64,000 nt of DNA from the NCBI GenBank assembly GCA_964569815.1, contig CAZMUN010000002.1:2701-66700 (forward strand), read 5' to 3'. Source of the DNA: an uncultured archaeon. GTDB lineage: Archaea > Iainarchaeota > Iainarchaeia > Iainarchaeales > GCA-2688035. The notes under the pieces are model-generated. The model made no database searches. It was not told the origin of the DNA and was given only the letters and a program-made list of their open reading frames with translations. The stretch's first letter is position 1. Each line of letters opens with the position of its first letter. A program made the position numbers and the translations under genes. Of the stretch, positions 21,451 to 64,000 are shown piece by piece.

Positions 21451-21452
21451 AA

Positions 21453-22397: not shown

Positions 22398-22400
22398 AAA

Positions 22401-22664: not shown

Positions 22665-22733
22665 AGCAAAAGAAAACGTTTATAAAGCAGAAAAAGGTAA
22701 TAAAATACATTTAAAAAAAAAGCAAAAACTTTA

Positions 22734-23009: not shown

Positions 23010-23027
23010 ATATAGCAAGGTTTTCGC

Positions 23028-23201
23028 ATGGATAACAGGGCACAGGTTAGCATAGAGTACCTGCTGCTTGCATTGTTTGGAATAATCCTGGCAATGGTTG
23101 CGGCAGTGCTGGTTGACGGCATTAGTTCAGTGGCAAGAACAGCACAGGGCAGAATACTTGATTACCGTCATCAGACAATTGCATCCTTATTAGAGACCTA
23201 A
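23028..23201 (+). CDS. 57-aa minor pilin-like protein (class III signal peptide), absent from the ORF track
   Basis: Hand translation MDNRA|QVSIEYLLLALFGIILAMVAAVLVDGISSVARTAQGRILDYRHQTIASLLET. Same RA|QxSIE pattern as its neighbours. Confidence 0.6.
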   Translation: MDNRAQVSIEYLLLALFGIILAMVAAVLVDGISSVARTAQGRILDYRHQTIASLLET

Positions 23202-23222
23202 AAAAGGGGTTTTTGTTTTACC

Positions 23223-24341
23223 ATGGCCCCTTTCCTATTCTTCTTCTTTGTTTCACTGCTTGGCTTAGCCTACGGCACATACACAGACTTCAAGGAAAGA
23301 ATCATACACGACTGGGTAACGTATGGCATGGTCGCTTTGGGGATAGCAGGCCATGCAGTGCTTGCATTCCTTTACCAGGACCCAATGGTTTTTGTAACGG
23401 CTTTGCTCGTAACCACGACAACGTTTTTGGCGGCATACGGCCTATACAAGATAGGCGTCTGGGCAGGCGGAGACGTAAAGCTTTTTGCAGGCCTTGCAGC
23501 CCTGAACCCGGTGAACCCGGCAATTCTGGCAAGGCTTGGCCTGATAACCGAGCCCTTGATTCAGCCAATTGATGCCCCTATTTTTCCGCTGACACTTTTT
23601 ATCTTCAGCCTCTTTGCAATGCTGCCATATGGGGCAATTCTCGCCGCCTCAAGGCTTAGGGCAAACAAGGCTGAAAAGAAGAAGTTCAAGGAAGAGGGCA
23701 AAAAAAGGCTGCTGCAGGCAGTGGAAGCAAGCGCAATAGTTGTGGGCCTGAGCCAAGCGATGGCATTTCTCCAAATAAGCCAATGGCTTGTTCTGCCATT
23801 GCTTGTTTTGTCCGGCCTCGTGCCAAAAAAGCCAAGGCTTGTAATCTCAGCCGTTTTGCTGTTCTACGCGCTGTTTGAAAACGCGGAACTGGCAGCACAG
23901 CAGTTTTTATTTATCGCGGCCTTCTTTTTCGGGCTATACCTTTTGTTCAAGCTATACCATTTGTCCAAAACACTTATGAGAAAGCCTGTTGCAATGGAAA
24001 AGCTTGAGGAAGGAATGATCTCAGCGCAAACCCTTGTAAAAAGCGGGCCAAACGTGAAAGTGGTGCCCGAAATTGGAATAAAAAAGTTAATTAACTACCT
24101 CGCCCTAAATAGGTCCAAAAAGGCAGTGCAATACCTTAAGCCAAAAGGCCGGGTTGTTGTTTCAAACAAGTCGGCAGGAGGCCTAACAGAAGAGGAAATA
24201 AGGGAACTCCAAAAACTTGCGCAGGAGAAAAAAACGCCCTCGGTTTTATGGGTAAAGGAAAGCGCTCCCTTTGTTCCCGCTGTGCTGATTGCATTCCTTG
24301 CACTGAACTTGGTTGGAGACATAATATGGGTTTTGGTTTAA
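23223..24341 (+). CDS. Prepilin/preflagellin peptidase (A24 family, PibD/FlaK-like) with a C-terminal extension
   Basis: Catalytic Asp motifs YTDFKERIIHD and GGDVKLFAGL in a polytopic membrane protein. Confidence 0.8.
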   Translation: MAPFLFFFFVSLLGLAYGTYTDFKERIIHDWVTYGMVALGIAGHAVLAFLYQDPMVFVTALLVTTTTFLAAYGLYKIGVWAGGDVKLFAGLAALNPVNPAILARLGLITEPLIQPIDAPIFPLTLFIFSLFAMLPYGAILAASRLRANKAEKKKFKEEGKKRLLQAVEASAIVVGLSQAMAFLQISQWLVLPLLVLSGLVPKKPRLVISAVLLFYALFENAELAAQQFLFIAAFFFGLYLLFKLYHLSKTLMRKPVAMEKLEEGMISAQTLVKSGPNVKVVPEIGIKKLINYLALNRSKKAVQYLKPKGRVVVSNKSAGGLTEEEIRELQKLAQEKKTPSVLWVKESAPFVPAVLIAFLALNLVGDIIWVLV

Positions 24342-24841
24342 ACAGAAAGGGAAGCATTAGCATTGAATTCATTCTGCTGATTGGCGTGGCCCTGATTTAC
24401 ATAAACGGGGTGGTATGGCCTATTGCAAACAGCAGCAGCGCTGCAACAGCAGACGTCAAAGCTGTTGCAGACACAAAGATTGCAGCCATGAAGCTTGGGA
24501 ATGCAATAAACCAGGCAGCCATTTCATCAGGAGAAATGAAGAAAACAGTCCAGCTCATGGTTCCAAAAAACTCGAAAATAGCCTGTTCGACAACAAGTGC
24601 AAGCTTGGTTTACATGGCGTATGTGGATTACATGGGAGGCTGGAACCCTGATGAAATCAATTGCACGGTTTACCCTAGTGCGCCGGCAGACCCAGAAGGG
24701 TTTGAATGCCAATCCCAAATAGGCCTTATCCAGGCGCCGGACAACTGCATTGCCGGAGCAACGATTTCGGGACCGATTTTGCGCGACATTGTTGTAAAAA
24801 AGAACGACGCTGGAGATATTTCTGTTGAGTGGGCCACATGA
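24326..24841 (+). CDS. Pilin-like protein (class III signal peptide), 171 aa
   Basis: MGFGLNRKG|SISIEFILLIGVALIYI. Start at the ATG at 24326 overlaps the peptidase end by 16 nt. The track ORF from 24248 is an out-of-context extension. Confidence 0.65.
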   Translation: MGFGLNRKGSISIEFILLIGVALIYINGVVWPIANSSSAATADVKAVADTKIAAMKLGNAINQAAISSGEMKKTVQLMVPKNSKIACSTTSASLVYMAYVDYMGGWNPDEINCTVYPSAPADPEGFECQSQIGLIQAPDNCIAGATISGPILRDIVVKKNDAGDISVEWAT

Positions 24842-25203
24842 AGCAAAAAGGCCAGGTAAGCATTGAAGCACTTATTCTTACAGCCGTAGTAATTTTGATG
24901 AGCATATCTGTTTTCGGCTACTACATCCAGATAAAGGATTCTACAACAGGAATGGAGGCCGCAAAAATCGAGGCCCTGCGGCAAATAAGCCAAGCAGGGC
25001 AAAAAGCCACTCTTGAAAGAATTGAATACAAATACGACCCCGGCCCTGGAATTGGCATAAGGTTCTGCTTTTTTTACGAAGCGGAAGCAGGCTTTGCATT
25101 TGACCAAAGCAAGCTCAAGAGCGAAATAGCTTCCCTGACCGCTTTTAACTCAACCGGCATAGAAATCCAGGAAAACCCTGCGGCAGCAAGCAACTGCGAG
25201 TAA
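24838..25203 (+). CDS. Pilin-like protein (class III signal peptide), about 122 aa
   Basis: MKQKG|QVSIEALILTAVVILMSI. ATG at 24838 overlaps the previous stop. Confidence 0.65.
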   Translation: MKQKGQVSIEALILTAVVILMSISVFGYYIQIKDSTTGMEAAKIEALRQISQAGQKATLERIEYKYDPGPGIGIRFCFFYEAEAGFAFDQSKLKSEIASLTAFNSTGIEIQENPAAASNCE

Positions 25204-45197: not shown

Positions 45198-47264
45198 TTG
45201 GACATGATTGAAAAAGTAAGGCTTCAGAACTGGAAAACCCACGCCGACAGCTCTTTCCAGTTTGATAAAGGCACAAATGTTTTGATAGGGCAAATGGGTT
45301 CAGGGAAAAGCAGTGTAATGGACGCTGTCTGCTTTGCCCTTTTTGGAACCTTTCCAAGCCTGCAGAGCAGAAAGGTTTCCTTGGAAGAAACCCTTACAAA
45401 CAAGCCAAACAAGGCAGACCAGGCCTTCATTGAGCTCGAGTTTTCATACAAGGGCAAAAAATACCGCGTGGAAAGAACTGTGAAAAGAAAGGGAAACAGC
45501 GAAGCCAAAATATACTGCGAAGGAAAATTTTTGGCAGGGCCAAAGCCCCGGGACGTAAACCAGGAAGTAGAAAAAGCCATTGAAATAAACTACAATCTTT
45601 TCAGCCGCGCAGTCTACTCTGAACAAAACGAAATAGACTACTTTTTGCGGCTAAGCCCAAAAGACCGAAAAACCAAATTCGACGAGCTTCTTGAATTGCA
45701 AAAATACGAAACCGTTCGCGGCAATGCAGTAACGGCCTTGAACAGGTTAAAGGCAAAAGCCAAAGACAAAAGGAAATGGGTTGAAGAGCAAAAAAGCCAG
45801 GCCAGGCCCGAAGAAGAAAAAGGGCTTAAGGAAAGAATCTTGGAAAAAGAAAAGGAAAACAAGGAGCTTTTGGAAACAATAGAGAAAAAAACAGCAGGCC
45901 TGGAAAAGCTTGAAAAATCGGTTAAGGGAATGGAAAAAACCGAAACCGAGTTCAGAAGGCTGCAAAACGCCACAGGAGAAAAAAAAGCAATCAAAAAACA
46001 GCTTGAGAAAGACATTGACGAGATGAAAAAAGAGGCGCAGAAAAGCCCTAAAGAAATAGAAGCCGTGTTTGAAGCCCTTGAAAAAGAAGAAAAAGAAAAA
46101 GAAAAACAAGCCAAGGAAACAGAGCAAAAGCTGGAGAAAGCAAGAGAGCAAAAAAGCTCGGCTGAAAAGCAGGCTGCATTAAACCAAAACAAGGCAGAAG
46201 AGCTCAGCAAACACCTTCAAGAGCTTCAAGGCCTTGGGGCAGAATGCCCGGTATGCAAGCAGAAGCTTGAAGAAAAAACCAGGGAAGCGCTCCTGGAAGA
46301 AGAAAAAAAAGAGCTAAAAAAAGCCGCACTTGAAATGGAAAAAGCCCTGAAGTCAGAAGCAGAAGCCAAAGCAAGGGTAAAGGACTGCGAAAAGGAAGCA
46401 AAAAAAGTTTCAGAGGAAAAAGAAAAGCTTACAGAAAAAAGAAATGCCTTGAAACAGGAAAAAGACGCTATTAAAAAGCTGGCTGAAAAAACCAGCTGCC
46501 TTGAAAAAAACTCAAAAGAGCTTGTTGAACAAGAAGAAAAACTCAAAAAGATGGAATTTGATGAAAAAAAGCTTTTGGACCAGAGAAAAAAACTGGTTGA
46601 AGAAAACGCGGCAATAAATGCAGCAAAAAATGCTGTAAAGGCAAACCAGCAGCTTTCCCAAGAAATGAGAAAAAGCCTTGGAAGAATAGAACAAACAAGA
46701 GCCAGGATAAAAGAACAAGAGAAAAACGTGAAGGCAATTGAAGCCAACTCGGAAAAGATGAACCTTTTTGTAAACAGCCTGCTTGCATCACAGCAGGAGC
46801 TCAGGGCAACGCTTATTGCAACCATAAACCAGGCAATGGACAGCATCTGGAAACGCGTTTACCCTTACAAGGACTACCTTTCGGCAAAAATGGATGTCGA
46901 ACAAGGAAACTACGAATTGCGCGTAAAAGACCTTAACGGAAACTGGGTTCGGGTTGAAGGAATTTTAAGCGGCGGGGAAAGAAGCGCTGCAGCAATCTGC
47001 ATAAGGATTGCTTTTTCGTTTGTTTTGACAAGGAACCTGAGCTGGATTATTTTAGACGAGCCAACACACAACCTTGACAGCGAAGCAGTGCAAACCCTCT
47101 CAGAAATGATGCAGCAGCATTTGCCAAAACTGGTTGAACAGATTTTTGTAATAACACACGACATGGAAATGAAAAAGGCCGCTACAGGCTCACTCTATGT
47201 CCTGGAAAGGGAAAAAAACAGTGACTCGGCAACAAGGCCTGTTTTAAGGCCAATCGGCAACTAG
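45198..47264 (+). CDS. rad50: Rad50/SbcC-family SMC-like ATPase with CxxC zinc hook
   Basis: Walker A GQMGSGKSS. Long coiled coil with central hook CPVCKQKL. Signature LSGGERSAAAI, Walker B ILDEP, D-loop. Confidence 0.8.
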   Translation: MDMIEKVRLQNWKTHADSSFQFDKGTNVLIGQMGSGKSSVMDAVCFALFGTFPSLQSRKVSLEETLTNKPNKADQAFIELEFSYKGKKYRVERTVKRKGNSEAKIYCEGKFLAGPKPRDVNQEVEKAIEINYNLFSRAVYSEQNEIDYFLRLSPKDRKTKFDELLELQKYETVRGNAVTALNRLKAKAKDKRKWVEEQKSQARPEEEKGLKERILEKEKENKELLETIEKKTAGLEKLEKSVKGMEKTETEFRRLQNATGEKKAIKKQLEKDIDEMKKEAQKSPKEIEAVFEALEKEEKEKEKQAKETEQKLEKAREQKSSAEKQAALNQNKAEELSKHLQELQGLGAECPVCKQKLEEKTREALLEEEKKELKKAALEMEKALKSEAEAKARVKDCEKEAKKVSEEKEKLTEKRNALKQEKDAIKKLAEKTSCLEKNSKELVEQEEKLKKMEFDEKKLLDQRKKLVEENAAINAAKNAVKANQQLSQEMRKSLGRIEQTRARIKEQEKNVKAIEANSEKMNLFVNSLLASQQELRATLIATINQAMDSIWKRVYPYKDYLSAKMDVEQGNYELRVKDLNGNWVRVEGILSGGERSAAAICIRIAFSFVLTRNLSWIILDEPTHNLDSEAVQTLSEMMQQHLPKLVEQIFVITHDMEMKKAATGSLYVLEREKNSDSATRPVLRPIGN

Positions 47265-47455
47265 CTCTTTTTTTGGGCTTTTATTTGCCTTGTGAGAAAA
47301 CCGGCAATCATGTTTCTGTCAAACCTGCTTAACTCGATGTCAAGTTCGCCCAAAACCTGCTTGTTTTTCTCAAAATTGGCAGTAAAACGTTCAGGAAATT
47401 TTTCAAGAAGGGTTTCAACCCTCATTTTAATAGATCGTGGAACCGCCTTACCCAA
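47261..47455 (-). CDS. rps17e: Ribosomal protein S17e
   Basis: MGKAVPRSIKMRVETLLEKFPERFTANFEKNKQVLGEL...RNMIAGFLTR matches S17e. Confidence 0.8.
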   Translation of the reverse strand: MGKAVPRSIKMRVETLLEKFPERFTANFEKNKQVLGELDIELSRFDRNMIAGFLTRQIKAQKKS

Positions 47456-47465
47456 AAAGAAAACC

Positions 47466-47669
47466 TCAAACGCCTACTTTTTCAACCCGGCCGTCAGAAA
47501 AACGCCTTATCACAGTCAAAGGAAGAACGCCTTCCTCCAGCTCTTTTTTGGCCAAAATATAAGGAGTGGAACCATCTTTGGCCTTAAGCAAGGGCGGCGC
47601 GCCAAAAGCTAGCTGAAGAGCGCGGGCGCTCACAAGCCTTGCCTTCTCAAACCTGGTTGCTTTGCTCAT
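47466..47669 (-). CDS. rpoK: DNA-directed RNA polymerase subunit K (Rpb6/omega homolog)
   Basis: MSKATRFEKARLVSARALQLAFGAPPLL...EEGVLPLTVIRR is the classic RpoK pattern. Confidence 0.8.
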   Translation of the reverse strand: MSKATRFEKARLVSARALQLAFGAPPLLKAKDGSTPYILAKKELEEGVLPLTVIRRFSDGRVEKVGV

Positions 47670-47747
47670 AAAAGTGCACCAAAAAAAAGTCCTTTTTCAG
47701 TTATAATAAAAGGTATTGAGAAAATTTAAAAGCCTTCTTGTTTGAGC

Positions 47748-49253
47748 CTAATTGGGTTTTTTTGTTGTTTTTAGAAGAATTGCCTGTTTTTGGGAAAACT
47801 GTTTCACCAAACTGTTGGGTTTTTGGCTGCTCAAAAAAACTTTGTTCTCTTTAAGGATAACATTGCTTTTCTTTTCAGCGGCAAAGCTGTGGAAATGGTC
47901 CAAAACAGAGTATTGGATGGCTTGAATGGCAGAACAAAGGCTTTCAGTGTAAAAGCCGCTTTTTTCGCTGGAAAGCTGTTTGAAAAGGGATGAAACAAGC
48001 CTTGAAGCCGATTCAGAAACAGATTCAAGCAAAAGGTATTCCAGGTTGTAAGACAAGGCGTTAAGTGAAAGAACCTTGTGCTGCTTCACTGACTCCAGGC
48101 TTACTTTATCCAGTTCCTTTTCTGCAAAATTGGAAACAGAATTCAGCTCAAACACGGCTTTTGAAACAAGGCTTTCCTTTTTCAGGCAAAACCAGGCCGC
48201 TTCTTTAAGGGAAACTATTTTTGCCTTTCCTTCTTCCCGAAGCCTGAAAGCGTCTGCAAGAGGCACTAAAGCTTTTTGGTTTCTAAAAAATGGCCCAACC
48301 GGAATTGATTTCAGGAAAAACTCTTTTTTTCTCCGAAGCCTGCTTTCCTTGTCTTTGTGGCTTTTGTGAAAACTTGAAGCAAACAGTTTTGAACATGATT
48401 CAAAGAAAAAGCCGTCTTTCTGCATCTCAACAGAAACAAGGCTGCTTGGCAGAATGTTTCTTTCAAAAATGGTTTTTGGCCTGCAGCAGTCGCAGCATAT
48501 GGTGTCAGGGCCAAGGTTGAAAAAAGGCTTTGTCAAAAGGGCGGCCCAAAGCTTTGAAAAATCTGCTTCAGCCAAGTCAGGCATTTTTGGCAAAGGCTCT
48601 TCCATCGAAAGCTTGCTTGGGTTTGTTTTGTTTGTTGAAAGCCCTGCCTGCCATAAGGCATTCTGAAGCAAAATTTCCTGCCGAAAAAACGGGTTTGAGG
48701 GAATTGCTTCCAGCTTTGTCTTCAAAAGCTTGCTTAACCCAATAAGAGAAATGGTTTTTTTGGCTGTTTCAGGGCTGTCTTTTATCACCTGTTTCAGGGT
48801 TTCTGGAAGAGGTTCGGAAAAAAACTTTACCCTGGCTTTTGGAAAGGCCGTGGTCTCGTTTTTGACAAACTCTTTGTCTGAAAAAAATGAAAAGCAGTCA
48901 AAATAGCTCCAGCCTTTTTCAAGCAAAAACTGGCGCTCTGGCTCAATAACCAAAGGCATGAAGCCTGTTGCCTTGAACAGGGCCTCGGCCAAAAGCTTTA
49001 AGTCTGAAAAGGCTCCTGCCACAACCTTGAAGCTTTTTTCACAGTTCTGCAACTTGAAGCGGGCTCTTTCCAGTGAAAGAATTTCTTTCAAGCCTTCAGA
49101 TGAAAGGAAGGTTTTTTTAACAAAGAAGGAGGGGAAAAAGGGCTGCCTGGACATTCTCCTAAAACCTAGCTGGGAGAAATTCAGGAGCATTGCCCTCTTT
49201 TCCTCAACATACTTTAGGTCGGTTAGCCAAAACTGTGAGGCTTTCAAAGTCAT
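47748..49253 (-). CDS. Hypothetical 501-aa protein with a CCDCC cysteine cluster, function unknown
   Basis: Long ORF co-directional with herA/nurA and rpoK. Motif NLGPDTICCDCCRPK. No Walker, phosphoesterase or other diagnostic motifs seen. Confidence 0.45.
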   Translation of the reverse strand: MTLKASQFWLTDLKYVEEKRAMLLNFSQLGFRRMSRQPFFPSFFVKKTFLSSEGLKEILSLERARFKLQNCEKSFKVVAGAFSDLKLLAEALFKATGFMPLVIEPERQFLLEKGWSYFDCFSFFSDKEFVKNETTAFPKARVKFFSEPLPETLKQVIKDSPETAKKTISLIGLSKLLKTKLEAIPSNPFFRQEILLQNALWQAGLSTNKTNPSKLSMEEPLPKMPDLAEADFSKLWAALLTKPFFNLGPDTICCDCCRPKTIFERNILPSSLVSVEMQKDGFFFESCSKLFASSFHKSHKDKESRLRRKKEFFLKSIPVGPFFRNQKALVPLADAFRLREEGKAKIVSLKEAAWFCLKKESLVSKAVFELNSVSNFAEKELDKVSLESVKQHKVLSLNALSYNLEYLLLESVSESASRLVSSLFKQLSSEKSGFYTESLCSAIQAIQYSVLDHFHSFAAEKKSNVILKENKVFLSSQKPNSLVKQFSQKQAILLKTTKKPN

Positions 49254-49320
49254 TGCATTAGGAAGAGGTTTTGCAGGCTTTTAAAGAAAGGAGAAAGAGA
49301 CCGGGTTTCCGGTAATATAT

Positions 49321-49674
49321 TCACTTTATGGGTTTCCCTTGTTTCAGGTAGCGCCTGTATTCAAAGAAATCCTTTTCCATGAACTCTTTTTTGCATTTTT
49401 CCTTGGAGCAGAGAGACATGTACTGGGTGCACATTTCTTTGTCCCCAATTTTTTTAAGGTATTGGCAACCTTGCCAGCTTGGGCGCTTTAGTTCAGGGTC
49501 TGCAGCTGCCTTGTCGCCCTCGCTTATGACCGCCATAGTCCTTTTAAGGTCTTTTCGTTCAAAAGCAGGCTTTGTGTCTGACCCCGAAATAGTGGTTCTG
49601 CCTTCAATTGCCTGTGTTTTTCCCAAAAAGGGGGTATTTTTCTTGGCTTCTGCAACAAAGTGAGCTAAAGGCAT
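49321..49674 (-). CDS. Hypothetical 117-aa protein with four spaced Cys (possible Zn-binding)
   Basis: CQYLKKIGDKEMCTQYMSLCSKEKC. Confidence 0.3.
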   Translation of the reverse strand: MPLAHFVAEAKKNTPFLGKTQAIEGRTTISGSDTKPAFERKDLKRTMAVISEGDKAAADPELKRPSWQGCQYLKKIGDKEMCTQYMSLCSKEKCKKEFMEKDFFEYRRYLKQGKPIK

Positions 49675-49720
49675 GCTTTAAATAATGCATTAAGTCATTA
49701 AAAAGTCTTTCGCTTTTTAG

Positions 49721-51256
49721 TCACAAAAGTTCCCTGGTTTCAGAATCCCGTTCTTCAGAGCCCTGTTCAAAGTCAAGGGCCGCTTTTTCAAGCGAAATCT
49801 CGTGCTTTGACTCCTGGCTTTTTCTTTCACGAACCTTGAAGAACAGCGGAAAGTGGGTTGCTTCGCCAACAACAAGTGCTTCTCCAACACGCAGGGAAGT
49901 GATCATGTCAATGCTTTTGCTGTCAAGGCCCTCAGAACTTTCAGAAATGTGTTTCAAGTCATAAGGGTTGGTTATCCGCAGTATTATGTGCGTGTTGCAT
50001 TGGCTTAAGGCCGTGGTGTCAAGCTGCACAGGCCTCTGCGAAACAAGGCAAAGCGAAGCGCCAAACTTTCTTCCCTCGCGGGCAATCGTCCTGATAATGC
50101 TTCTCGAAATAGCTGTTTCGGCCGCAACATGCTCTGGAACAAACTGGTGGGCTTCCTCCAAAACAAGTAGAAATGGCGGTATTTTCTTGTTTCGCCTTTC
50201 GAAAAAAATCCTCTGTGCGAAATAGCTTACAATAACCTGCTTTTTTTTCAGGTCTATAAGGTCGCTTAAGTCGATGACGGTAAGCTGGCCTGGCTTTATC
50301 AAATCTATTATGCTTGGATTGTCGGTTTTTCCAAAAAGGTTAAGGCTTCTCAAGGAATCAATCCAGCCCATCAAAGGCCCTTTGCTGTTTTCCTTTATGG
50401 ATCCATCTCTCGAAACTGCGTCCCGCAAGTCGTTTAAGTCAAAGGGGCCAACGCCCTCCTTCATCTGCTGCTTCAGCTCAGACAAAATTCGGCCAAGGTC
50501 ACGCTTCTGCGGGCCACTCAACCCAGGGATTATGCCTGAAACAACGCCTATGCTCAGCTTTGGAACGCCTATCTTTATGTCGTTTGCCTTTACAAGCTTT
50601 GTTTTTCCAGAGTAATCCTTTTTGCCTTTGCCTTTTGGAACAGAGGCAAAACTGCTGTATTCGCCATGTGGGTCCAGCACTATGGTGGAAATGCGGCCTT
50701 TGTCTTTGGGCCTGTCAAGAAGCTCTTCCAAGAGAACTGAGACAAGGTAGCTTTTTCCACCTCCGGATAAGGCAAGGATTGCAAGATGCTTTTTCAAAAG
50801 CGAGGTCATGCTGAGCTTTACGTCAAGGTCGTGGTGCTCCACTGTTCCAATAAAAAGCCCGGCCTCTTTGTCAAAGTTTAGGAATTTTTCAAGGCTTTCC
50901 TTTGAAGCAATCTTTACACGCGTTCCAGGGCTCGGTGGAAAGGTAACGCGCTTTATCATGTTTCCTGAAAACATTCCCAAAGGCCTTGTTTTTGCAACAA
51001 GGTATTCCCATTCCGATGTTGGAAACTGTTCAAAAAGAGCGGAACCACTGCTTTCAAACTCTTTTACTGAATCAGCCCTTTCAAAATAGCGGTTTGTTTT
51101 AATCACGTCGTTAACCAAAGCGATGAGGTTTCCGCCTGCATGCGAAAATTCCACAAACTGGCCCCTGTGAACCAGGCCCTTGTTTACAACAAAGTCCACG
51201 TTTGAAGGGCTCGGCGAATCCACGGTGCTTACAACGGTCCCTATTTCTTTTTCCAA
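49721..51256 (-). CDS. herA: HerA-type bipolar DNA helicase (FtsK/HerA superfamily ATPase)
   Basis: HAS-barrel-like N-terminus. Walker A LAILALSGGGKS. Conserved TIVLDPHGEY. Walker B and Arg-finger region. Confidence 0.8.
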   Translation of the reverse strand: MEKEIGTVVSTVDSPSPSNVDFVVNKGLVHRGQFVEFSHAGGNLIALVNDVIKTNRYFERADSVKEFESSGSALFEQFPTSEWEYLVAKTRPLGMFSGNMIKRVTFPPSPGTRVKIASKESLEKFLNFDKEAGLFIGTVEHHDLDVKLSMTSLLKKHLAILALSGGGKSYLVSVLLEELLDRPKDKGRISTIVLDPHGEYSSFASVPKGKGKKDYSGKTKLVKANDIKIGVPKLSIGVVSGIIPGLSGPQKRDLGRILSELKQQMKEGVGPFDLNDLRDAVSRDGSIKENSKGPLMGWIDSLRSLNLFGKTDNPSIIDLIKPGQLTVIDLSDLIDLKKKQVIVSYFAQRIFFERRNKKIPPFLLVLEEAHQFVPEHVAAETAISRSIIRTIAREGRKFGASLCLVSQRPVQLDTTALSQCNTHIILRITNPYDLKHISESSEGLDSKSIDMITSLRVGEALVVGEATHFPLFFKVRERKSQESKHEISLEKAALDFEQGSEERDSETRELL

Positions 51257-51260
51257 AAAA

Positions 51261-51431
51261 TCAATCCCCTTCTTTTAGCGCTTTAACAAAATTTTGGTTC
51301 CCCTTGAGTGCAATGCCTTCATAGCCGCATTTTGGGCAACGGTATTGGTCTCCAAGCTTGCCTCCAAGAAGCCATCTTAGGTCCACGGCCCCGCATTTGG
51401 GGCAAACCATTGTTTCTTTCTCGCTTTTCAT
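51261..51431 (-). CDS. 56-aa double-CPKCG zinc-ribbon protein between nurA and herA; absent from the ORF track
   Basis: Hand translation MKSEKETMVCPKCGAVDLRWLLGGKLGDQYRCPKCGYEGIALKGNQNFVKALKEGD. Confidence 0.5.
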   Translation of the reverse strand: MKSEKETMVCPKCGAVDLRWLLGGKLGDQYRCPKCGYEGIALKGNQNFVKALKEGD

Positions 51432-51440
51432 AAAAAACAC

Positions 51441-52541
51441 TTAAAATGGCCTGTAGTCGCGCCTTAGCCTTAACTTAAATCCTTTACCAAGCTTGTTTAA
51501 AATCTTGTCATAGACGAGCTCTATTTCGTCAGGATGCAGCCTTGCATGAAGGTCTGCTTCTATGAGAATTGCCGGGTATGCGTATTCACGGTGCATGCAG
51601 CTCTGGGAAAAAACAATGGAAGCAATTTCAGAGGCGTGCTTTGAAATGGTTTTATCGCGGTTTGAATGGAGAAACTCTACCCTGAGGGGCCTGTCAAAGG
51701 CAACAGGCTTTAGGTAAAAAGCATGCACTGATTTGGACCATCTTTCATCAAAATCCATCAGGATAGGGTGCTCTTTTACGCCTGCAGTGTAGGAAAAGGC
51801 AAGGCTTCGCTCGCCAGGCTTTAGCAGGTAATCCAAAATAATTGCATCATAGCATCCTTCAAGCTGTTGGGACAGGTTTTGCTGGTTTGCAAGAAGGCGT
51901 TCCTGTAAAATTTGCCTGAATCTCGAACCCCGGGAGTCTTCAACGCATGCAATCAGTTCACAGTTCTTTTCAGCGGCAAGCTTGTAAAGGCCTTGAAACT
52001 CGGAAAGCATTTTATGGTAAGCTGACTTTATCTTGCTGTCTTTTCTCGGCTTGTCTGCATACTGCGGAACAATGCTTCCATCCAAAAAACAGTATCTTGG
52101 GGAAAAGTTTTCCACCAAGGATTTTGCGGTTTTTACCTCTTCAATCAAGCGCTGAATGTTTTTGCTGCACTGGAATTCGTCTGCCTCCAGAGCGTTGTTG
52201 TTTAGGCGCGGCTCAGGAAAACAGTAAAAGCTTGGAAAATACCGGGCTTTCGAAAGCTTTCCCTGCGAATAGTCAAAAACCGCTCCAATTGCCCTTATGA
52301 GAACCAAATCCAGGGCAAAAAGGTCTTTTCCCACAAAGCCTGAGTCAACACCTGCAATGCTGCCTTCCAGAGGGATTTTTTCCACAGGCATCAAAAGCCT
52401 TTCTTCAAGAAAGTCCTCTGAACCTATTTCAAGCAAATTCAAGCCCTTTAAGGGCGCAAGCTTTTCGCTTAAAACACGCCTTTTTTTGTCCGCCTCTGCT
52501 ATATTGTTCACGGCTTCAGAAATAACGCTGTGGAGTTGCAT
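51441..52541 (-). CDS. nurA: NurA-family 5'-3' nuclease (HerA partner)
   Basis: IAGVDSGF (NurA DGS motif) near the N-terminus. About 366 aa. Operonic with herA. Confidence 0.65.
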   Translation of the reverse strand: MQLHSVISEAVNNIAEADKKRRVLSEKLAPLKGLNLLEIGSEDFLEERLLMPVEKIPLEGSIAGVDSGFVGKDLFALDLVLIRAIGAVFDYSQGKLSKARYFPSFYCFPEPRLNNNALEADEFQCSKNIQRLIEEVKTAKSLVENFSPRYCFLDGSIVPQYADKPRKDSKIKSAYHKMLSEFQGLYKLAAEKNCELIACVEDSRGSRFRQILQERLLANQQNLSQQLEGCYDAIILDYLLKPGERSLAFSYTAGVKEHPILMDFDERWSKSVHAFYLKPVAFDRPLRVEFLHSNRDKTISKHASEIASIVFSQSCMHREYAYPAILIEADLHARLHPDEIELVYDKILNKLGKGFKLRLRRDYRPF

Positions 52542-55970: not shown

Positions 55971-56312
55971 ATGGGAATAAAGCAGGCAATTGTGGTAAGA
56001 ACCGACCTAAAAATGTCACGCGGAAAAATTGCGGCACAGGCCGCCCACGGGTCTGTTGCAGCATTGTCAAAAAGCACGGCGTCCGCCTACAGCGCATGGG
56101 TTTCAACCGGAATGAAAAAAGTCGTTTTAAGAATAAAAGGAAAAAAAGAGCTTCTTGACTTGTACAAAGAAGCCAAAAAAAAGTTTCCCACAGCAATCGT
56201 AAAAGACGCAGGCCAGACTCAGGTTAAGTCAGGGACAATAACCTGTCTTGCAATAGGACCGGCAGACGATGCAGACATGGACAGGCTTACTGGAAAGCTA
56301 AGGCTTCTCTAA
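55971..56312 (+). CDS. pth2: Peptidyl-tRNA hydrolase, archaeal type (Pth2)
   Basis: KQAIVVRTDLKMSRGKIAAQAAHGS...GTITCLAIGP. Start at internal ATG 55971. The track ORF begins at 55944. Confidence 0.75.
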   Translation: MGIKQAIVVRTDLKMSRGKIAAQAAHGSVAALSKSTASAYSAWVSTGMKKVVLRIKGKKELLDLYKEAKKKFPTAIVKDAGQTQVKSGTITCLAIGPADDADMDRLTGKLRLL

Positions 56313-56941
56313 CCAGTGAATTCGTCCACTTCAACGCCCGGGTTCTCAAAATCAACAATCCAAACGCAGTTCTCCCTGCCGGCCTGGTCAGAAATGGCAT
56401 AGCATATGTCATAATCCAGTAGCTCGCGGGCCACTTCTGCATGGCACCTGTATTTTTGGCTTATGTTTTCCGAAAAGTATTCGTTGCAGATTGCAAGCTT
56501 GTCGTTTTTGAACTGGGCATCGTAGGGGGATATGCAGGCATAGTAGCCTGGATTGTCATCAGAATATGTTTCTTCACACTCACCCAGCTTTTCTTGAATA
56601 TCCAAAGAAACAAAGTCGCGGGCAATCGACCTAATGCAGATTATTCTGTCAGGCCCATATTCAATGTTAAGGCACCTTTCAGGGTCCTGGTAATCAAAAG
56701 CTTCAAAACGCCAGCATAGGTCCCTTTTGTAGGAAGTTTCCTGCTGCCCACAAGGCTGCAAAATGCTCCCCTCTTCCACAGGCGCTGGATCGGCATCAAC
56801 ATACCAGCTTTCCTCAAGGTCTTCCTCACCCAATTCATAGTCCTCAGCTGGCTGGGCCTCCTGCTGCTGGTATAAAACAAAAACAAGGCCGCACGCCACA
56901 GCAACAGCCAAAACCCCGTAAACGATATTTTTTTGCTCCAT
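56309..56941 (-). CDS. Secreted acidic cysteine-rich protein (about 13 Cys), unknown function
   Basis: N-terminal signal/TM segment, then a D/E-rich region. Multiple Cys in the C-terminal 150 aa. Confidence 0.4.
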   Translation of the reverse strand: MEQKNIVYGVLAVAVACGLVFVLYQQQEAQPAEDYELGEEDLEESWYVDADPAPVEEGSILQPCGQQETSYKRDLCWRFEAFDYQDPERCLNIEYGPDRIICIRSIARDFVSLDIQEKLGECEETYSDDNPGYYACISPYDAQFKNDKLAICNEYFSENISQKYRCHAEVARELLDYDICYAISDQAGRENCVWIVDFENPGVEVDEFTG

Positions 56942-58859: not shown

Positions 58860-60125
58860 ATGGCAAAAACCTATTTAAGCACTGTAAAGTATGTAATAAA
58901 AACAAACTTTACAATAGACGGAATAGTTGACAAGCACGACATAATTGGAGCGATTTTTGGGCAAAGCGAAGGCCTAATTGGAGAGGAAATGGACCTCAAA
59001 GAGCTTCAAAAAAACGGAAAGCTTGGCAGGATTGAAGTGGAAACCAAAACCAAAAGCGGAAAAACCGTTGGAACAGTGACTGTTCCAAGCAGTCTGGACC
59101 GCGTTCAAACAAGCATTCTTGCAGCAGCAATAGAATCAGTTGACAAAGTCGGCCCCTGCACAAGCAAATTTGAAACCCAAGGCATTGAAGACGCCAGGCA
59201 GGAGAAAAGAAAAGCAGTAACAGACCGCGCCAAAGAGCTTCTGCAAAAAATGGGGGTTGAAATGCCCGAAACCCAGGAATTGACAGAACAAATAAGAGGC
59301 GATTTAAGGACAGCGGGAATCAAGGAAATTGGGCAAGAAAAGATAGCCATAGGACCGGAAGTGGATTCCAGCGACGAACTGATACTGGTTGAAGGAAGAG
59401 CCGACGTTTTGAACCTAGTAAGGCATGGAATAAAAAACGTTGCCTGTGTAGGCGGGGCAAAAACCTCCAAGACAGTGGAAAACCTGGCAAGAGGAAAAAA
59501 GGTTACCTTGTTTGTCGACGGCGACCGCGGAGGAGACCTGATTGCAAGGCAGTTGGGAAAGTTCCTGAAAGTGGATTCAACTGCAAGGGCTCCAGACGGA
59601 AAAGAAGTTGAAGAACTCACCCTAAAAGAGATTTTGAGCAGCCTGAGAAAAAAAGGCGAAGCAGAAGACAGGGGAAGCAGAAGCCAGCCATACTCTGATT
59701 CAAGGAGCTACCGCCCCAGAAACGATTACAGAAAAAGAGACAACTATAAAAGAGGGCGAAGGCCACCAAAAAAAGACTATGGGCGAAGCCGAGGGCCACC
59801 CAGAAGGGAACAAAGATACGAAAGGCCCCCAATGCCAATAAAGCCCAACGACTTAGGCGAATACAGCCAGCATATGAAAGACCTTGAAGGAAGCCTCAAA
59901 GCAAAGATTCTTGGCAAGGACAAAAAAGTCTTGAAAGAAGTGGATGTCCGCGACCTGCTTAAAGAGATGGGAAAAACCAAGAACGCGGAAGCCATAGTTC
60001 TCGACGGCATAATAACAAAAAGGCTTTTGGACGAAGCCGAAAAAAACAGCGTCAAAGAGCTTGTAGGCGTAAAAAAAGGAAAAATAGAGGAAACAGGCAA
60101 AGTAAAGGTTTCAAGCCTTTACTAA
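58860..60125 (+). CDS. dnaG: Archaeal DnaG-type primase (Toprim) with an inserted Arg/Tyr/Pro-rich low-complexity segment
   Basis: Toprim ELILVEGRADVLNLVRHGIKNVACVGG...LFVDGDRGGDLIARQL. Residues about 265-326 are RGSRSQPYSDSRSYRPRNDYRKRDNYKRGRRPPKKDYGRSRGPPRREQRYERPP. Confidence 0.8.
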   Translation: MAKTYLSTVKYVIKTNFTIDGIVDKHDIIGAIFGQSEGLIGEEMDLKELQKNGKLGRIEVETKTKSGKTVGTVTVPSSLDRVQTSILAAAIESVDKVGPCTSKFETQGIEDARQEKRKAVTDRAKELLQKMGVEMPETQELTEQIRGDLRTAGIKEIGQEKIAIGPEVDSSDELILVEGRADVLNLVRHGIKNVACVGGAKTSKTVENLARGKKVTLFVDGDRGGDLIARQLGKFLKVDSTARAPDGKEVEELTLKEILSSLRKKGEAEDRGSRSQPYSDSRSYRPRNDYRKRDNYKRGRRPPKKDYGRSRGPPRREQRYERPPMPIKPNDLGEYSQHMKDLEGSLKAKILGKDKKVLKEVDVRDLLKEMGKTKNAEAIVLDGIITKRLLDEAEKNSVKELVGVKKGKIEETGKVKVSSLY

Positions 60126-60550
60126 CGCTTTTTCTTCTTTCCTTTTTGTTTTTCTTCTTCAGCAGCCACTGGCCTTGGCATGCGAACTATTCTGGTGTTG
60201 TAAAGGAAAAGGCCTAAAACAAAGGCCGCAGCCCAAAACAAAAGCTCTCCAACAGGCCTAAGCAAAGTAACCAAAAACTGCCTAGAGGTAATGCCAGGCT
60301 GGTCTGAACGAAGCTGCAAACCAGAAATCCTGTACAAGGAATCCTTGCAGTCGCTGTACTGCAGCATTGCAACGCTTTCATTGCCCCAGCCAATGCTTGC
60401 AACACACTTTGGGTATTTCTTCATCGCATCCCAAGAATCAAACATATTGCCTGCGGCAACAACAAACATCACAATAGCCAAAACGATTATGAACGAGCCA
60501 AGCACCCTTGGCAAAAAAAGCCTGCTTTTTCCAAAATAAAAGAACGCCAT
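60122..60550 (-). CDS. Small membrane protein, unknown
   Basis: Two TM helices. Basic C-terminus EEEKQKGKKKKR. Confidence 0.35.
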   Translation of the reverse strand: MAFFYFGKSRLFLPRVLGSFIIVLAIVMFVVAAGNMFDSWDAMKKYPKCVASIGWGNESVAMLQYSDCKDSLYRISGLQLRSDQPGITSRQFLVTLLRPVGELLFWAAAFVLGLFLYNTRIVRMPRPVAAEEEKQKGKKKKR

Positions 60551-60617
60551 GATTTCACCAGCAACAAATAGTGTTTAAGGGTATTTAAAGCTTGCTGAAG
60601 CCCAAAAACCAGCCTAA

Positions 60618-61613
60618 TTATTCTCCAACCGCAATAAAAGAAAAAGCCCTTTCATAGCTTGTGGCTCCGTTGTATGCCCTTGGCTCAAACCTGAAGCCGT
60701 TTGCAGTTACATTCCTTAAATTTACCTCCCTCGGGGCTTTTGTGGTGGCAATTGTGTCATCAGTAACGGTTGCAACAACAGTCGGAGGAGAAGAAAAAGG
60801 CGTATCAAAAGTTACATCACAGTAGTCAGGATTGGTTAGGGTGTAAACAGCTGAAAAGCCGGTGCCCTTTACAACATTTCCCACATTGTCCACCGTCCCA
60901 AATACAGCTCTTGAAAAGCCTGTTGAGGCATCAGCACACGTCCAAGAACCAGACGAAAATTTAAGAGTTTGGCCCTCTAAACAGGCAGGCAGCCCAGAAC
61001 CAGTTGTTTCACCAAGCGCAGGAATAAAGCAGCGGTAAGGCCTTTGCTCTTGTTCACCTGCATCGGCTACTGCAGCCAAATCCCAGTTTCCTCCGCCAAT
61101 ATGGTCATACTTTATGCCAAAACAGTAATTGTCCCAATCTCCGCCGTCAAGGCCGCCGTCCAAAAAATGCTGTGTCGTAATGGCAGTGATATCAAGGCCA
61201 AGGCTGTACTTCATTCCAGTGTAAGCCTCGTTAAAGCTTGGAAGCCGGCCGCCATAACTATTAAAGCAATCCATTACCGCAGCCCTGCATTCCTTTGCAG
61301 CCTGCGCCTGGTTTTGAATGCAGCCCAAAGAAACGCCACTGCTTGCAACCGCAGTAAAGCCAGTTGGGCAAGAAATCGGCCCAGGGAAAAGCCCTGCATT
61401 TATTGCATCCTGCAAAGCCATTTCCCCTTGCCCTGGAACATCAACCCATACAGTGTCGCCGCCATGCCCAGGATTAGGCAGCGGCTGGGAATAAGGGTAA
61501 GAGAAATGCAAAACCTGGCCGTTTGCAACCACAAAACCAACAGAACAGAAAAGCAAAACAAGAAATGCAAAAAACGCGGCCTGCTTTCCTGAAACAGACA
61601 AGGTGAGCTCCAT
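60618..61613 (-). CDS. Secreted cysteine-rich protein with conserved NPGH...MALQDAIN N-terminal motif and a possible H-type-lectin-like C-terminal domain
   Basis: Signal peptide. NPGHGGDTVWVDVPGQGEMALQDAIN. About 14 Cys. C-terminus VTFDTPFSSPPTVVATVTDDTIATTKAPREVNLRNVTANGFRFE. Confidence 0.5.
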   Translation of the reverse strand: MELTLSVSGKQAAFFAFLVLLFCSVGFVVANGQVLHFSYPYSQPLPNPGHGGDTVWVDVPGQGEMALQDAINAGLFPGPISCPTGFTAVASSGVSLGCIQNQAQAAKECRAAVMDCFNSYGGRLPSFNEAYTGMKYSLGLDITAITTQHFLDGGLDGGDWDNYCFGIKYDHIGGGNWDLAAVADAGEQEQRPYRCFIPALGETTGSGLPACLEGQTLKFSSGSWTCADASTGFSRAVFGTVDNVGNVVKGTGFSAVYTLTNPDYCDVTFDTPFSSPPTVVATVTDDTIATTKAPREVNLRNVTANGFRFEPRAYNGATSYERAFSFIAVGE

Positions 61614-61680
61614 CCAGACAATATAAAGAATATTGGCATTAAAATAGTTTTCTATGCAAAATTTTGCTATAGGGCTCGTG

Positions 61681-61752
61681 GTCTAGTGGTATGACATCAC
61701 CCTTACAAGGTGAGGGTCGCCGGTTCGATTCCGGCCGGGCCCAAGACAGCTT
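61681..61752 (+). tRNA. tRNA-Val (anticodon TAC)
   Basis: Hand-folded. Acceptor GGGCTCG/CGGGCCC (one G-U pair). Anticodon stem TCACC/GGTGA, loop CTTACAA. T-arm GCCGG-TTCGATT-CCGGC. No encoded CCA. Confidence 0.7.
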
Positions 61753-61850
61753 GAACGAATTTAAATCGACCAGAATAACGCTTTTTTCGCAAACCTTTTT
61801 TCAAAAAGCCCTTCGATTTGGTAAAGCCAGCTTCCCAAAAAAAAAGAGCC

Positions 61851-62606
61851 CTAGCTACAGCTTACAGTGTAGTAAACTGTGACAGGGTCAAACCTGTTAC
61901 CACGACCATTAATGCAGTCCTCGCTGTTCCTGTGAATAAGGCAGTAGTCCACTACCCAGTTTGAAGGATTTACCTTGAGGCTTTGGCCGTCAAAATTTGC
62001 CCAGTAACCATCCCCAACAATAAGGCCACGGCCAATATCGCCTATAGAAACCGAGTACTCGCATTCGGCCCTTGAAAAACCAGGCGGAACAGGAATTGAT
62101 TGAACAGAGCCGTCCAAAACAAGGCTGCCGGATACAATTTCCCCCGAACCTCGCTTGCAGCATTTTGCTTCATAAAGGCTATTATGAGTATCTATTTTGC
62201 AGCCGGTGCAAGTGTTGGTGCCCCCAGGAGGCTCACAGACAGCTATACAAACTTCGCCATGCGCCTGGCAAGTCAAGTCGCCTGTGTAAGTAGTGGAACC
62301 AGGAGTATAGCTGCCAAAAACCGTTCGGTAAGTGCAGACTGAAAACCCGTCTCCGCCAAAGCAGCCTAAGTCAACGGCTTCCTGCAAAGCCATATCACCT
62401 GAACAAACACCGATGCCAATGCCATCAAGATTTACCACAATCTCGGTTGAGCTATGACCCGGATTCGGAGTATTGGCTGGATTTGGGTCTGCCAACTGCA
62501 AAACAGAATCGGATTTTGCAATAGCAAAAGCAAGGCCAGAAAAAAGCAGGACCGCAAAAGCCAAAATTACAAAGTCTCGGCCTTGCAGTGAAGAAGTCTT
62601 CTTCAT
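61851..62606 (-). CDS. Secreted cysteine-rich protein, paralog of the 60618 gene (shared NPGH...MALQEAVD motif)
   Basis: Signal peptide. NPGHSSTEIVVNLDGIGIGVCSGDMALQEAVDLGC. About 18 Cys including CTGC and CC pairs. Confidence 0.5.
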   Translation of the reverse strand: MKKTSSLQGRDFVILAFAVLLFSGLAFAIAKSDSVLQLADPNPANTPNPGHSSTEIVVNLDGIGIGVCSGDMALQEAVDLGCFGGDGFSVCTYRTVFGSYTPGSTTYTGDLTCQAHGEVCIAVCEPPGGTNTCTGCKIDTHNSLYEAKCCKRGSGEIVSGSLVLDGSVQSIPVPPGFSRAECEYSVSIGDIGRGLIVGDGYWANFDGQSLKVNPSNWVVDYCLIHRNSEDCINGRGNRFDPVTVYYTVSCS

Positions 62607-62640: not shown

Positions 62641-62883
62641 TTGTTTTTTCTAAAAACCTGGAAAAAACCATTAAATACTTCTTTTCCCTTTCGTTTTAGA
62701 ATGAAGCCAAAAGAAAGAAAAGTCACATTAGATGTTCTGGTTGAAGGGCCTGGCGGCGAACTCGTGTTCAGGCCGGTGAAAGCAAGCCCCCACAACCTAA
62801 AAGAAGTGATTGAAGCAAGCAAAAACCCTGTTCTCAAGCACAACGTTTTCAAGACAGGAACAGAGAAGAAGGTGAAGCTTTGA
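62641..62883 (+). CDS. Hypothetical small basic protein (60-80 aa)
   Basis: ORF only. Alternative internal start MKPKERKV... Confidence 0.25.
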   Translation: MFFLKTWKKPLNTSFPFRFRMKPKERKVTLDVLVEGPGGELVFRPVKASPHNLKEVIEASKNPVLKHNVFKTGTEKKVKL

Positions 62884-64000
62884 AGGAAAAGCTCCCGGTT
62901 GCGGCTTTTTTTCTCCTTGTTTTAGGGAATTGTTTTGGACAGGAAATAGAAAACCCTTTGACAGCCCAGTCTGTTAGGGCAAAGGTCGCAATTTCAGGCC
63001 AAGGAAACCTTTCAGGGGACCTCCACGGCGGAACCGCGTCCCTGGAAATAGTTTCATTCAAGGAAAGCGAAAACCAGTCAGTCCTAACAATAAGCGAAAC
63101 CCTTTACATGAATGGAAAAACCATTCAGGCCACAACAAAAGAAGACGAGTTTGGAAACAGGTACGCTGTCTTTGAGCTGGACGGCACAGGCTCTTTTGAA
63201 TACGAAATCAGGGCCGTTATTGAAACAGATTCAAAGCTGGAAGGCATTCAAGAAGAGGATTTAAGCCAAGGCATAAGCGAATTCCACGAGTTTACGGAGC
63301 CAACGAAAAACGTTGAATCAAACAGGGAAGAGATAAGGACTCTTGCACTAAACAAGTTTGAATCAAAAAGCTTTGTTGAAACCCTTCGCGACATAATTGA
63401 ATGGACACACCAATACATAGAATACGATTTGTCTTATTACCCGGAAACCTACAGCGCAATAGAAACCCTGAACTCAAAAAAAGGCGTCTGCGACGAGTTC
63501 GCAGTACTGTCTGCAGCAATGTTCCGCGCAAAAGAAATTCCAACAAAGTTTTCTTTAGGCGTAGTGTACAGCGGAAACAGCTGGGGAAACCACGCCTGGA
63601 TCCAAACATACACTCCAAAAAATGGGTGGATTGAATCAGACTCAACTTATGGAGAGGCAGGCTACATAGACGGAATGCACTTCCTCAGGGCAGCTTTCCC
63701 AGACCCTGAATCAAACAAGTCAAAGCTCACAGTAAAAAGCGTTAACCCAAACGATTTCACTTCAACTGTGACAGAAAACGAGCCACAGGTCGAAATACAG
63801 AACATTGAAAGGTTTTCAGGAATCCTTAAAGCAAGCCCAAAGGACATCACTTTTCCAGCCAACCAATGGTTTGACCTCCGCGTCGAAATAGAAAACCTTA
63901 CAGACAAAACAGCGATAAGCCCTGTAAGCCTGCAGCGCGTGGAAAACCTGCATATAGAGGAAAGGGAAAAAATACTGGTCTTTGGGCCAAAAGAGGAAAA
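62880..64000 (+). CDS. Secreted transglutaminase-like (papain-fold Cys-His-Asp) domain protein, 3' end outside the window; probable TTG start
   Basis: Open frame from 62814 to the window end. LKEKLPVAAFFLLVLGNCFG|QE is signal-peptide-like. Core KKGVCDEFAVLSAAMFRAKEIPTKFSLGVVY...WGNHAWIQTY is the transglutaminase-core signature. First in-frame ATG only at 63108. Confidence 0.55.
   Translation, partial: MKEKLPVAAFFLLVLGNCFGQEIENPLTAQSVRAKVAISGQGNLSGDLHGGTASLEIVSFKESENQSVLTISETLYMNGKTIQATTKEDEFGNRYAVFELDGTGSFEYEIRAVIETDSKLEGIQEEDLSQGISEFHEFTEPTKNVESNREEIRTLALNKFESKSFVETLRDIIEWTHQYIEYDLSYYPETYSAIETLNSKKGVCDEFAVLSAAMFRAKEIPTKFSLGVVYSGNSWGNHAWIQTYTPKNGWIESDSTYGEAGYIDGMHFLRAAFPDPESNKSKLTVKSVNPNDFTSTVTENEPQVEIQNIERFSGILKASPKDITFPANQWFDLRVEIENLTDKTAISPVSLQRVENLHIEEREKILVFGPKEE

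Follow-up and report, generated by a model that had tools for sequence, protein, structure and literature searches.

The locus and its two genes

The DNA considered here (the window) comprises 64,000 nucleotides from an uncultured archaeon of the Iainarchaeota, and the subject is a pair of genes, ORF A and ORF B, which flank a valine tRNA gene. ORF A (60618-61613, reverse strand) encodes 331 amino acids (aa) and ORF B (61851-62606, reverse strand) encodes 251 aa; tRNA-Val(TAC), a conserved landmark of the region, is situated between them (61672-61743, forward strand). These two open reading frames (ORFs) and the tRNA had been reported by an earlier interpretation made from the letters alone, referred to here as the sequence-only reading, and all three were confirmed at these coordinates. 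A is a mosaic protein, predicted to be exported, which is composed of a leader, an NPGH/LQDAI module, a C-type-lectin-like domain, a Cys hairpin and an H-type lectin domain. B is composed of a leader, an NPGH/LQEAV module, a Cys-rich stretch and a C-terminal domain. The GC content of both genes is unremarkable, and that at third codon positions (GC3) is 0.42-0.45, as in the neighbouring genes. In a collection of about 15 billion proteins, A and B are each the only member of their cluster, and neither has a match in NCBIfam.

The shared leader and N-terminal module

Residues 1-85 of A and B align in BLASTP with 36% identity (E 7e-13), and no other part of the two proteins aligns. Their paralogy is that of the leader and the N-terminal module (N-module) only, which make up between a quarter and a third of each protein, and the remaining C-terminal parts are unrelated; the description of A and B as paralogs is thus correct for the N-terminus and incorrect for the rest of these mosaic proteins. 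The shared motif is placed as had been claimed, with NPGH at position 47 of A and position 48 of B, MALQDAIN starting from residue 65 of A and MALQEAVD from residue 72 of B. Signal-peptide-like N-termini were also recognised in both, as a hydrophobic stretch of about 20 residues that follows K or R and ends in VVA (A) or AIA (B). The leader of A (residues 1-30; 61524-61613, reverse strand) begins with the amphipathic n-region MELTLSVSGKQ, followed by the hydrophobic helix of about 20 residues, and it would serve either as a signal peptide for the Sec pathway or as a signal anchor that stays uncleaved. The very high Cys content ascribed to both proteins was overstated for A (10 Cys, 3.0%), although it is raised in both: B contains 14 Cys (5.6%), the ORF at 56309-56941 contains 11 (5.2%), and the background of the window is 1.24% (42 long ORFs).

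The part common to A and B, consisting of NPGH, a β-hairpin and the LQDAI helix, occupies residues 44-78 of A (61380-61484, reverse strand). Two strands (residues 56-59 and 63-66) followed by a helix (residues 67-72) are predicted for it in the AlphaFold2 model, at a predicted local distance difference test score (pLDDT) of 77-87. The homologous NPGH/LQEAV module of B (residues 45-85; 62352-62474, reverse strand) carries an extra Cys pair, C68 and C82, and this Cys-bearing variant is also present in the homologs P0128 and P0159.

A profile of the module was built from seven sequences including A and B and searched against 1.84 billion cluster representatives, with family clusters defined at 50% identity. 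It matched 897 representatives at E≤1e-3, 271 of them at E≤1e-10, so the shared motif is conserved in homologs. A and B scored 131 and 106 bits, values that are self-inclusive since both sequences are in the profile, and independent members scored up to 113 bits. Most matches show three matched stretches, which indicates that the module is a tandem unit of about 35 residues; a family protein carries between one and three of these units. The H, L, Q, A and I of the module are at least 90% conserved among 139 members. Nearly all members begin with a hydrophobic run that follows K or R, with a median start at residue 9 and a median length of 20 residues; the median Cys content of the family is 4.8%. 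Both A and B possess the features of the family, namely an N-terminal hydrophobic helix preceded by K or R and at least one unit of the form G-H-x(~12-20)-L-Q-x-A-I. The module was not covered by Pfam in any of the 139 members scanned (E≤1e-3) and is absent from NCBIfam, and a literature search on "NPGH" returned unrelated acronyms only.

The regions that follow the module are highly diverse. In the 139 members, Pfam recognised cargoes of the types TSP_1 (15), TSP1_spondin, Gly_rich_2, SASA, Fib_succ_major, GP38 (a phage adhesin), GLUG, Lcl_C and Big_9, and RCC1-like and TSP1-like cargoes were found in the genomic loci L004, L005 and L008. Clustering of 144 C-terminal tails by sequence gave 46 clusters, of which 38 were singletons. 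The search for genome loci used four close sequences in place of the seven-sequence alignment, and its hits are therefore biased towards the PNPGHGGD subtype. Eight of the nine genome loci lie in archaeal metagenome-assembled genomes, and six of these are titled Woesearchaeota or Pacearchaeota. One hit of the search, L010 (Lachnospiraceae), has no start codon and was discarded as a spurious match. The family genes often occur in tandem (L002, L005, L009 and L092). By these sequence features, A and B are members of a large family of modular exported proteins, so far without annotation, from DPANN archaea of the Woesearchaeota/Pacearchaeota type. Together with the archaeal neighbours of A and B, this distribution makes a DPANN archaeon of that type the most likely source of the window.

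Genes with the leader-GH N-terminus were also observed at another kind of locus. In L092 (4541-6495), three such genes lie between archease/RtcB and pilin-like plus T2SSF/T2SSE genes, and two in L091 (107-565 and 4316-4780) are located likewise. This archease/RtcB-pilus junction suggests a second hot spot of the family and a possible link to a pilus system. The first of the L092 genes carries a Cys hairpin, of the type described below for A, directly after the GH motif.

The C-type-lectin-like domain and Cys hairpin of A

Residues 80-199 of A (61017-61376, reverse strand) constitute a compact C-type-lectin-like domain with the pattern CPxGF..LGCIQ..C..YGGRLP..E...YRCFIP. The domain account of the sequence-only reading was incomplete in this respect, as it missed both this second lectin-type domain and the Cys-stapled hairpin at residues 208-228. 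A profile of the C-type-lectin-like stretch retrieved 30 homologs of 120-210 aa. No Pfam model, including Lectin_C, Lcl_C and FGE-sulfatase, matched the domain in A or in these 30 homologs; the profile gave nothing significant against PDB sequences, and a viral fold library gave weak C-type-lectin-like matches only.

For structure prediction, an alignment of 33 rows restricted to A residues 31-201 was supplied to AlphaFold2. The resulting model had a mean pLDDT of 74.5, with a core above 90 and a long loop at 55-66, and at the level of fold residues 80-199 are C-type-lectin-like. Four cysteines (C82, C98, C116 and C195) show a conservation of 90% or more across the 33 family sequences and fit an N-terminal hairpin pair and an α1-β5 pair, the pairing being deduced from position. 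A contains none of the EPN, QPD and WND motifs and has no Lectin_C match at E≤1. The domain is therefore C-type-lectin-like in fold and is not a canonical Ca-dependent lectin.

The homologs differ in the context of the domain. In the bacterial proteins P0006, P0015, P0017, P0022-P0024 and P0028, it stands behind stalk motifs of the tail-fibre type (IPNTFxxGTxxxAxxVNxNF; GxVGIGTxxPxxxLxV), and the gene of P0006 stands alone within a shikimate-pathway/SmpB region (L093). P0029, P0030, P0032, P0034 and P0035 have a C-terminal membrane helix in place of the stalk motifs.

The joint between the modules of A is a hairpin bracketed by cysteines (residues 208-228; 60930-60992, reverse strand; LPACLEGQTLKFSSGSWTCAD). 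It recurs in P0002, in P0003 and P0004 (twice in each), in ORFs of L002 and in one gene of L092, always between modules. A likeness of its GQxL...GxW pattern to the foldon of T4 fibritin is a possible lead.

The H-type lectin domain of A

The C-terminus of A had been proposed to resemble H-type lectins, with a hidden Markov model search as the check, and this search supported the proposal. PF09458 matched A residues 266-329 over profile positions 3-67 of 67 (E 1.3e-6); the score, 28.9 bits, exceeds the gathering threshold of 24. Together with two preceding strands, the domain would span residues ~232-331 (60621-60920, reverse strand). Residues 266-329 align to residues 34-98 of Helix pomatia agglutinin (HPA) with one gap and 23% identity over 65 residues; the E value of this alignment is 3e-9 in pairwise BLASTP and 0.3 in phmmer against all PDB sequences. 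Among PHROGs, A matched the 'lectin' family phrog_1910 (E 0.0074) and phrog_21558 (E 1.9e-4).

The C-terminal parts of B

Beyond the N-module, B continues with a stretch rich in Cys (residues 86-154), which is followed by a C-terminal domain (residues 155-251). Neither part has a match in Pfam, NCBIfam, PHROGs or PDB sequences. A PDB match of B to RPN1 (E 0.008) falls on the hydrophobic leader and was treated as noise. The C-terminal domain is common only to P0010 (154 aa, 65% identity), whose related leader carries HGHDANEI instead of NPGH...EI.

Gene gain, gene loss and cassette replacement at tRNA-Val

Related metagenome loci, 80 in number, were fetched with the DnaG protein. Two genes next to A and B serve as syntenic anchors in the comparison: a 142-aa membrane protein gene (mem142; 60122-60550, reverse strand), which adjoins ORF A and is kept in relatives, and a gene for a secreted transglutaminase-like protein beyond ORF B (62883-64000, past the window end, forward strand). 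The tRNA-Val downstream of DnaG is kept in L001, L011, L012, L013, L014, L020, L021, L035 and L056, and mem142 was found beside DnaG by tblastn in L001, L011, L012, L013, L014, L035, L036 and L056.

Both flanks of tRNA-Val are spots of accessory gene gain and loss, including whole family genes. L012 and L035 show the order Hjc, DUF167, DnaG, mem142 (reverse), tRNA-Val (forward) and transglutaminase-like protein (forward), with neither A nor B. An unrelated 229-aa ORF follows the tRNA in L011, an unrelated 150-aa membrane ORF precedes it in L056, and the locus is continued in L013 and L014 by two other genes of ~185 aa and ~290 aa, whose translations resemble LemA and HtpX. The variation in presence and absence that had been suggested as a point of comparison was thus found among the relatives.

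The sole relative with a family gene at the position of A is the closest one, L001, whose DnaG is 88.6% identical. In blastn, window positions 61702-61386 correspond to L001 1-313 and positions 60550-57952 to L001 814-3415, both at 84% identity, with nothing between. The 84% identity covers the tRNA, the intergenic region and codons 1-76 of A, is lost at 61386 and is regained at 60550, which is the start of the mem142 gene. The gap in DNA homology directly after the N-module (60551-61385, reverse strand) marks the replaced cassette: these sharp breakpoints indicate that the C-terminal cargo was replaced as a unit directly after the N-module. In P0002, the L001 product, the N-module leads straight into the Cys hairpin, which is followed by a different Cys-rich domain.

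Probable function and alternative explanations

An extracellular binding role is the most reasonable interpretation of A and B that we infer from these data. More specifically, A and B are probably, with considerable room for doubt, modular, Sec-exported adhesins of the lectin type with exchangeable heads, which would attach to other cells. The Cys pairs at positions of structural importance for the domains, an extracellular signature, argue for this interpretation. Lectin-like proteins have been proposed as host-recognition factors in cultivated DPANN archaea (10.1101/2023.10.27.564410), and many unannotated DPANN-specific families are predicted to be extracellular (PMC8204110).

The following sequence of events can be proposed. 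The N-terminal helix would direct Sec export with the N-terminus inside, and may then either remain as an N-terminal membrane anchor or be cleaved after VVA (A) or AIA (B). The N-module would act as a conserved stalk or oligomerisation handle, and the distal lectin domains would bind surface glycans or proteins of the partner or host cell of an episymbiotic archaeon. Swapping of the cargo would alter the binding specificity.

Several results weigh against the adhesin interpretation. Foldseek matches of the C-type-lectin-like model are weak (best E 0.058), and the absence of EPN, QPD and WND, combined with poor modelling of the long loop, leaves a protein or a lipid no less possible than a glycan as the ligand. 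AlphaFold2 run on the single sequence of A gave an all-β structure over residues 238-330 with a pLDDT below 50 (mean of full-length A 34.7). The sugar site of HPA is partly kept in A: for the residues of the N-acetylgalactosamine site of HPA (N61, R63, W83, H84 and Y89), R63 corresponds to R295 and Y89 to Y320, while W83 is replaced by Y314, N61 by A293 and H84 by N315. In addition, library searches revealed no recognisable binding domain in B.

The main rival to surface-attached adhesins is that A and B are soluble secreted effectors, for instance RegIII-type lectins that kill microbes or target the cell wall, or modules for the delivery of toxins, which we regard as unlikely and still worth serious attention. 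The signal-peptidase-like ends VVA|N in A and AIA|K in B would permit release, RegIII and lithostathine are among the fold-search matches, and the proteins are small with polymorphic C-terminal cassettes like those of polymorphic toxin systems. However, no enzymatic or toxin domain was found in A or B with Pfam and NCBIfam, no gene of the immunity type is located downstream, the length of the hydrophobic run (about 20 residues) is more typical of a membrane helix, and the recognised cargoes of the family are mostly adhesive or binding domains.

It is improbable that A and B form part of a type IV pilus-like system, whether as pilin-like subunits or as adhesins at its tip, with assembly through a class III signal peptide. 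The window does carry a complete type IV pilus-like locus (18603-25203), which encodes a T2SSE ATPase (18603-20336), two T2SSF proteins (20329-21450 and 21453-22397), a 91-aa pilin (22734-23009) that has a class III signal and a tail rich in Cys, an A24 prepilin peptidase with an archaeal C-domain (23223-24341) and two further pilin-like ORFs (24248-24841 and 24829-25203), and the leader-GH genes of L091 and L092 adjoin pilin-like and T2SSF/T2SSE genes. A and B are nevertheless about 36 kb away from the pilus locus, and neither matched Class_IIIsignal at E≤1, whereas a true pilin of the window matched at E 4e-7. The residues before the hydrophobic run in the family are KR, KK, NK or KH and never the [KR]-G of the window pilins (KG|QVSIE).

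An origin from a virus or prophage that had integrated at tRNA-Val, of which A and B would be left as receptor-binding proteins of a tail-fibre tip, has a slightly smaller probability still. H_lectin and C-type-lectin-like domains are common as phage fibre tips; A has weak matches to Gp53-like_C (E 0.49) and to PHROG families annotated 'lectin' and 'tail fiber protein' and phrog_21558; and the tail-fibre-like stalks of the bacterial homologs and the adjoining tRNA fit such an origin as well. Yet the tRNA-associated integration boundary whose existence the sequence-only reading had left to be checked was not found: there is no att-type tRNA repeat (no tRNA-derived k-mer of 11 nt or more within 14 kb), and no gene for a phage protein, integrase or capsid is present in the surroundings. 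GC3 does not stand out, and A and B are surrounded by housekeeping genes whose synteny is conserved. No match of A was obtained by tblastn against 50,697 phage records, and the profiles of the N-module and the C-type-lectin-like domain have no relatives in IMG/VR. A and B also have their own Sec-type leaders, which are normally missing from virion proteins. A diversity-generating retroelement (DGR) that has the C-type-lectin-like domain of A as its variable protein is hardly credible, with no template repeat of A or B within the 64-kb window (best non-self match 29 nt) and no reverse transcriptase among the 25 of 73 families listed for the large ORFs of the window. The prophage, att-site, DGR and class III pilin explanations were tested and rejected on evidence from the window, phage records, IMG/VR and Pfam.

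Relation to known systems

The C-type-lectin-like domain of A is most like the trimeric C-terminal tip of Bd2740, a mosaic adhesive trimer (MAT) fibre of Bdellovibrio bacteriovorus (PDB 8oks; 17% identity; PMC10769870). This trimeric tip of Bd2740 is displayed on the cell surface, plays a part in the entry into prey and is likewise C-type-lectin-like without being a canonical Ca-dependent lectin (PMC10769870). The MAT proteins are bacterial, roughly 600-1000 aa in length, and form long trimeric fibres with a different N-terminus, whereas A has 331 aa, no fibre repeats, and a Sec-type leader with NPGH/LQDAI. A is not a member of the MAT fibre family and has the tip fold alone in common with it.

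Other prokaryotic C-type-lectin-like folds are the C-terminal domain of Legionella Lcl (DUF1566, PF07603), Mtd, TvpA and FGE; A matches neither the Lcl_C nor the FGE-sulfatase model of Pfam. The domain of A has an N-terminal CPxGF...C hairpin, as in the long-form C-type lectin domains of animals. In comparison with HPA (PDB 2ccv, PF09458), the Arg and Tyr of the sugar site are kept in A, which amounts to two of the five mapped residues, and the Asn and the His differ; unlike HPA, the H-type domain of A, with a putative fold and sugar specificity, forms the C-terminal end of an archaeal protein with several domains.

Among DPANN archaea, MJ1_0179 of Nanobdella aerobiophila and LC1Nh_0399-401 of Nanohalobium constans combine an N-terminal membrane helix with a lectin domain and have been proposed to function in host recognition (10.1101/2023.10.27.564410). 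These proteins differ from A in having legume/ConA-like lectin and Ig-like folds, and no NPGH/LQDAI, C-type-lectin-like or H-type domains were reported in them. Lectin-bearing surface proteins of symbionts are an already known kind. As judged from Pfam, NCBIfam, PHROGs, PDB sequences and the searchable literature, the following appear to be new: the NPGH/LQDAI repeat family as a handle in Woesearchaeota/Pacearchaeota, a compact unannotated C-type-lectin-like family common to DPANN archaea and bacteria, the combination of C-type-lectin-like and H-type lectin domains in one small archaeal protein, and a clean cassette swap beside a conserved tRNA.

A broader proposal can be offered as a speculative possibility that we consider rather doubtful in its entirety. 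NPGH/LQDAI could be a DPANN-specific display handle, possibly oligomerising around the invariant His, to which interchangeable receptor-binding cassettes are attached in Woesearchaeota/Pacearchaeota, some of them common to bacterial predators or phage-like fibres. Such a system would be the archaeal counterpart of phage receptor-binding proteins or MAT fibres and a main determinant of the host cells to which these uncultivated episymbionts can attach, and the flanks of tRNA-Val and the archease/RtcB-pilus junction would be its hot spots of exchange.

DPANN archaea are mostly uncultivated. The wide distribution of the family, its conserved leader and module, its exchangeable heads and the replacement of a cassette at strain level make it a concrete candidate for host recognition. 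Expressed heads could be used as probes for hosts, on glycan arrays or in the staining of environmental cells, and both the repeat domain of about 35 aa and the C-type-lectin-like family are candidates for entry into protein-family databases.

Neighbouring genes and other observations

The genes around A and B are archaeal housekeeping genes, including those for Rad50/SMC-like protein, HerA, NurA, Hjc, DUF167 protein and a Toprim (DnaG-type) primase. NifU, Aminotran_5 (NifS-type) and Pth2 were assigned by Pfam in the syntenic relative L001, and the window also encodes an intein-containing Cdc48, class II aminoacyl-tRNA synthetase domains and an RFC subunit. The sequence-only reading had suggested a surface or host-interaction gene cluster here; with housekeeping neighbours, the region is neither such a cluster nor an island. 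It had also considered the Cys-rich protein at 56309 and the transglutaminase-like protein as partners of A and B. The transglutaminase-like gene is real (Transglut_core, E 8.4e-20), but both genes are syntenic in relatives that lack A and B and do not form a co-inherited cluster with them.

In the relatives L011, L012, L035 and L056, the transglutaminase-like protein is about 576-587 aa long and carries a signal peptide as well as a Cys-His-Asp core, GVCDEF...NHAW...D. Its gene is kept beside tRNA-Val even where the DnaG of the relative is only 35-63% identical to that of the window. The Cys-rich protein (56309-56941, reverse strand; 210 aa, 11 Cys) has an N-terminal hydrophobic helix. Homologs occupy the corresponding position in L001, with 67% identity, and in L011, with 38%; the protein is diverging more rapidly than the products of the adjacent genes, which are 82-91% identical in L001. 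No family match was obtained for it, and it stands outside the NPGH/LQDAI family.

Elsewhere in the window, a DNA end-resection cluster (45198-52541) contains genes for a Rad50-like protein (45198-47264), HerA (49721-51256) and NurA (51441-52541). A 501-aa ORF within it (47748-49253) possibly encodes Mre11, yet has no Pfam match at E≤0.01. The Cdc48/AAA ATPase (371-4036, reverse strand; 1221 aa) is split by an intein (Intein_splicing E 3.8e-19) that contains a homing-endonuclease domain of the LAGLIDADG type (LAGLIDADG_3 E 8e-21). In L011 (1563-3017), the NifU homolog was recovered by tblastn in two pieces, residues 1-64 and residues 63-129, with about 1.06 kb between them, which suggests an intein or an inserted element in nifU.

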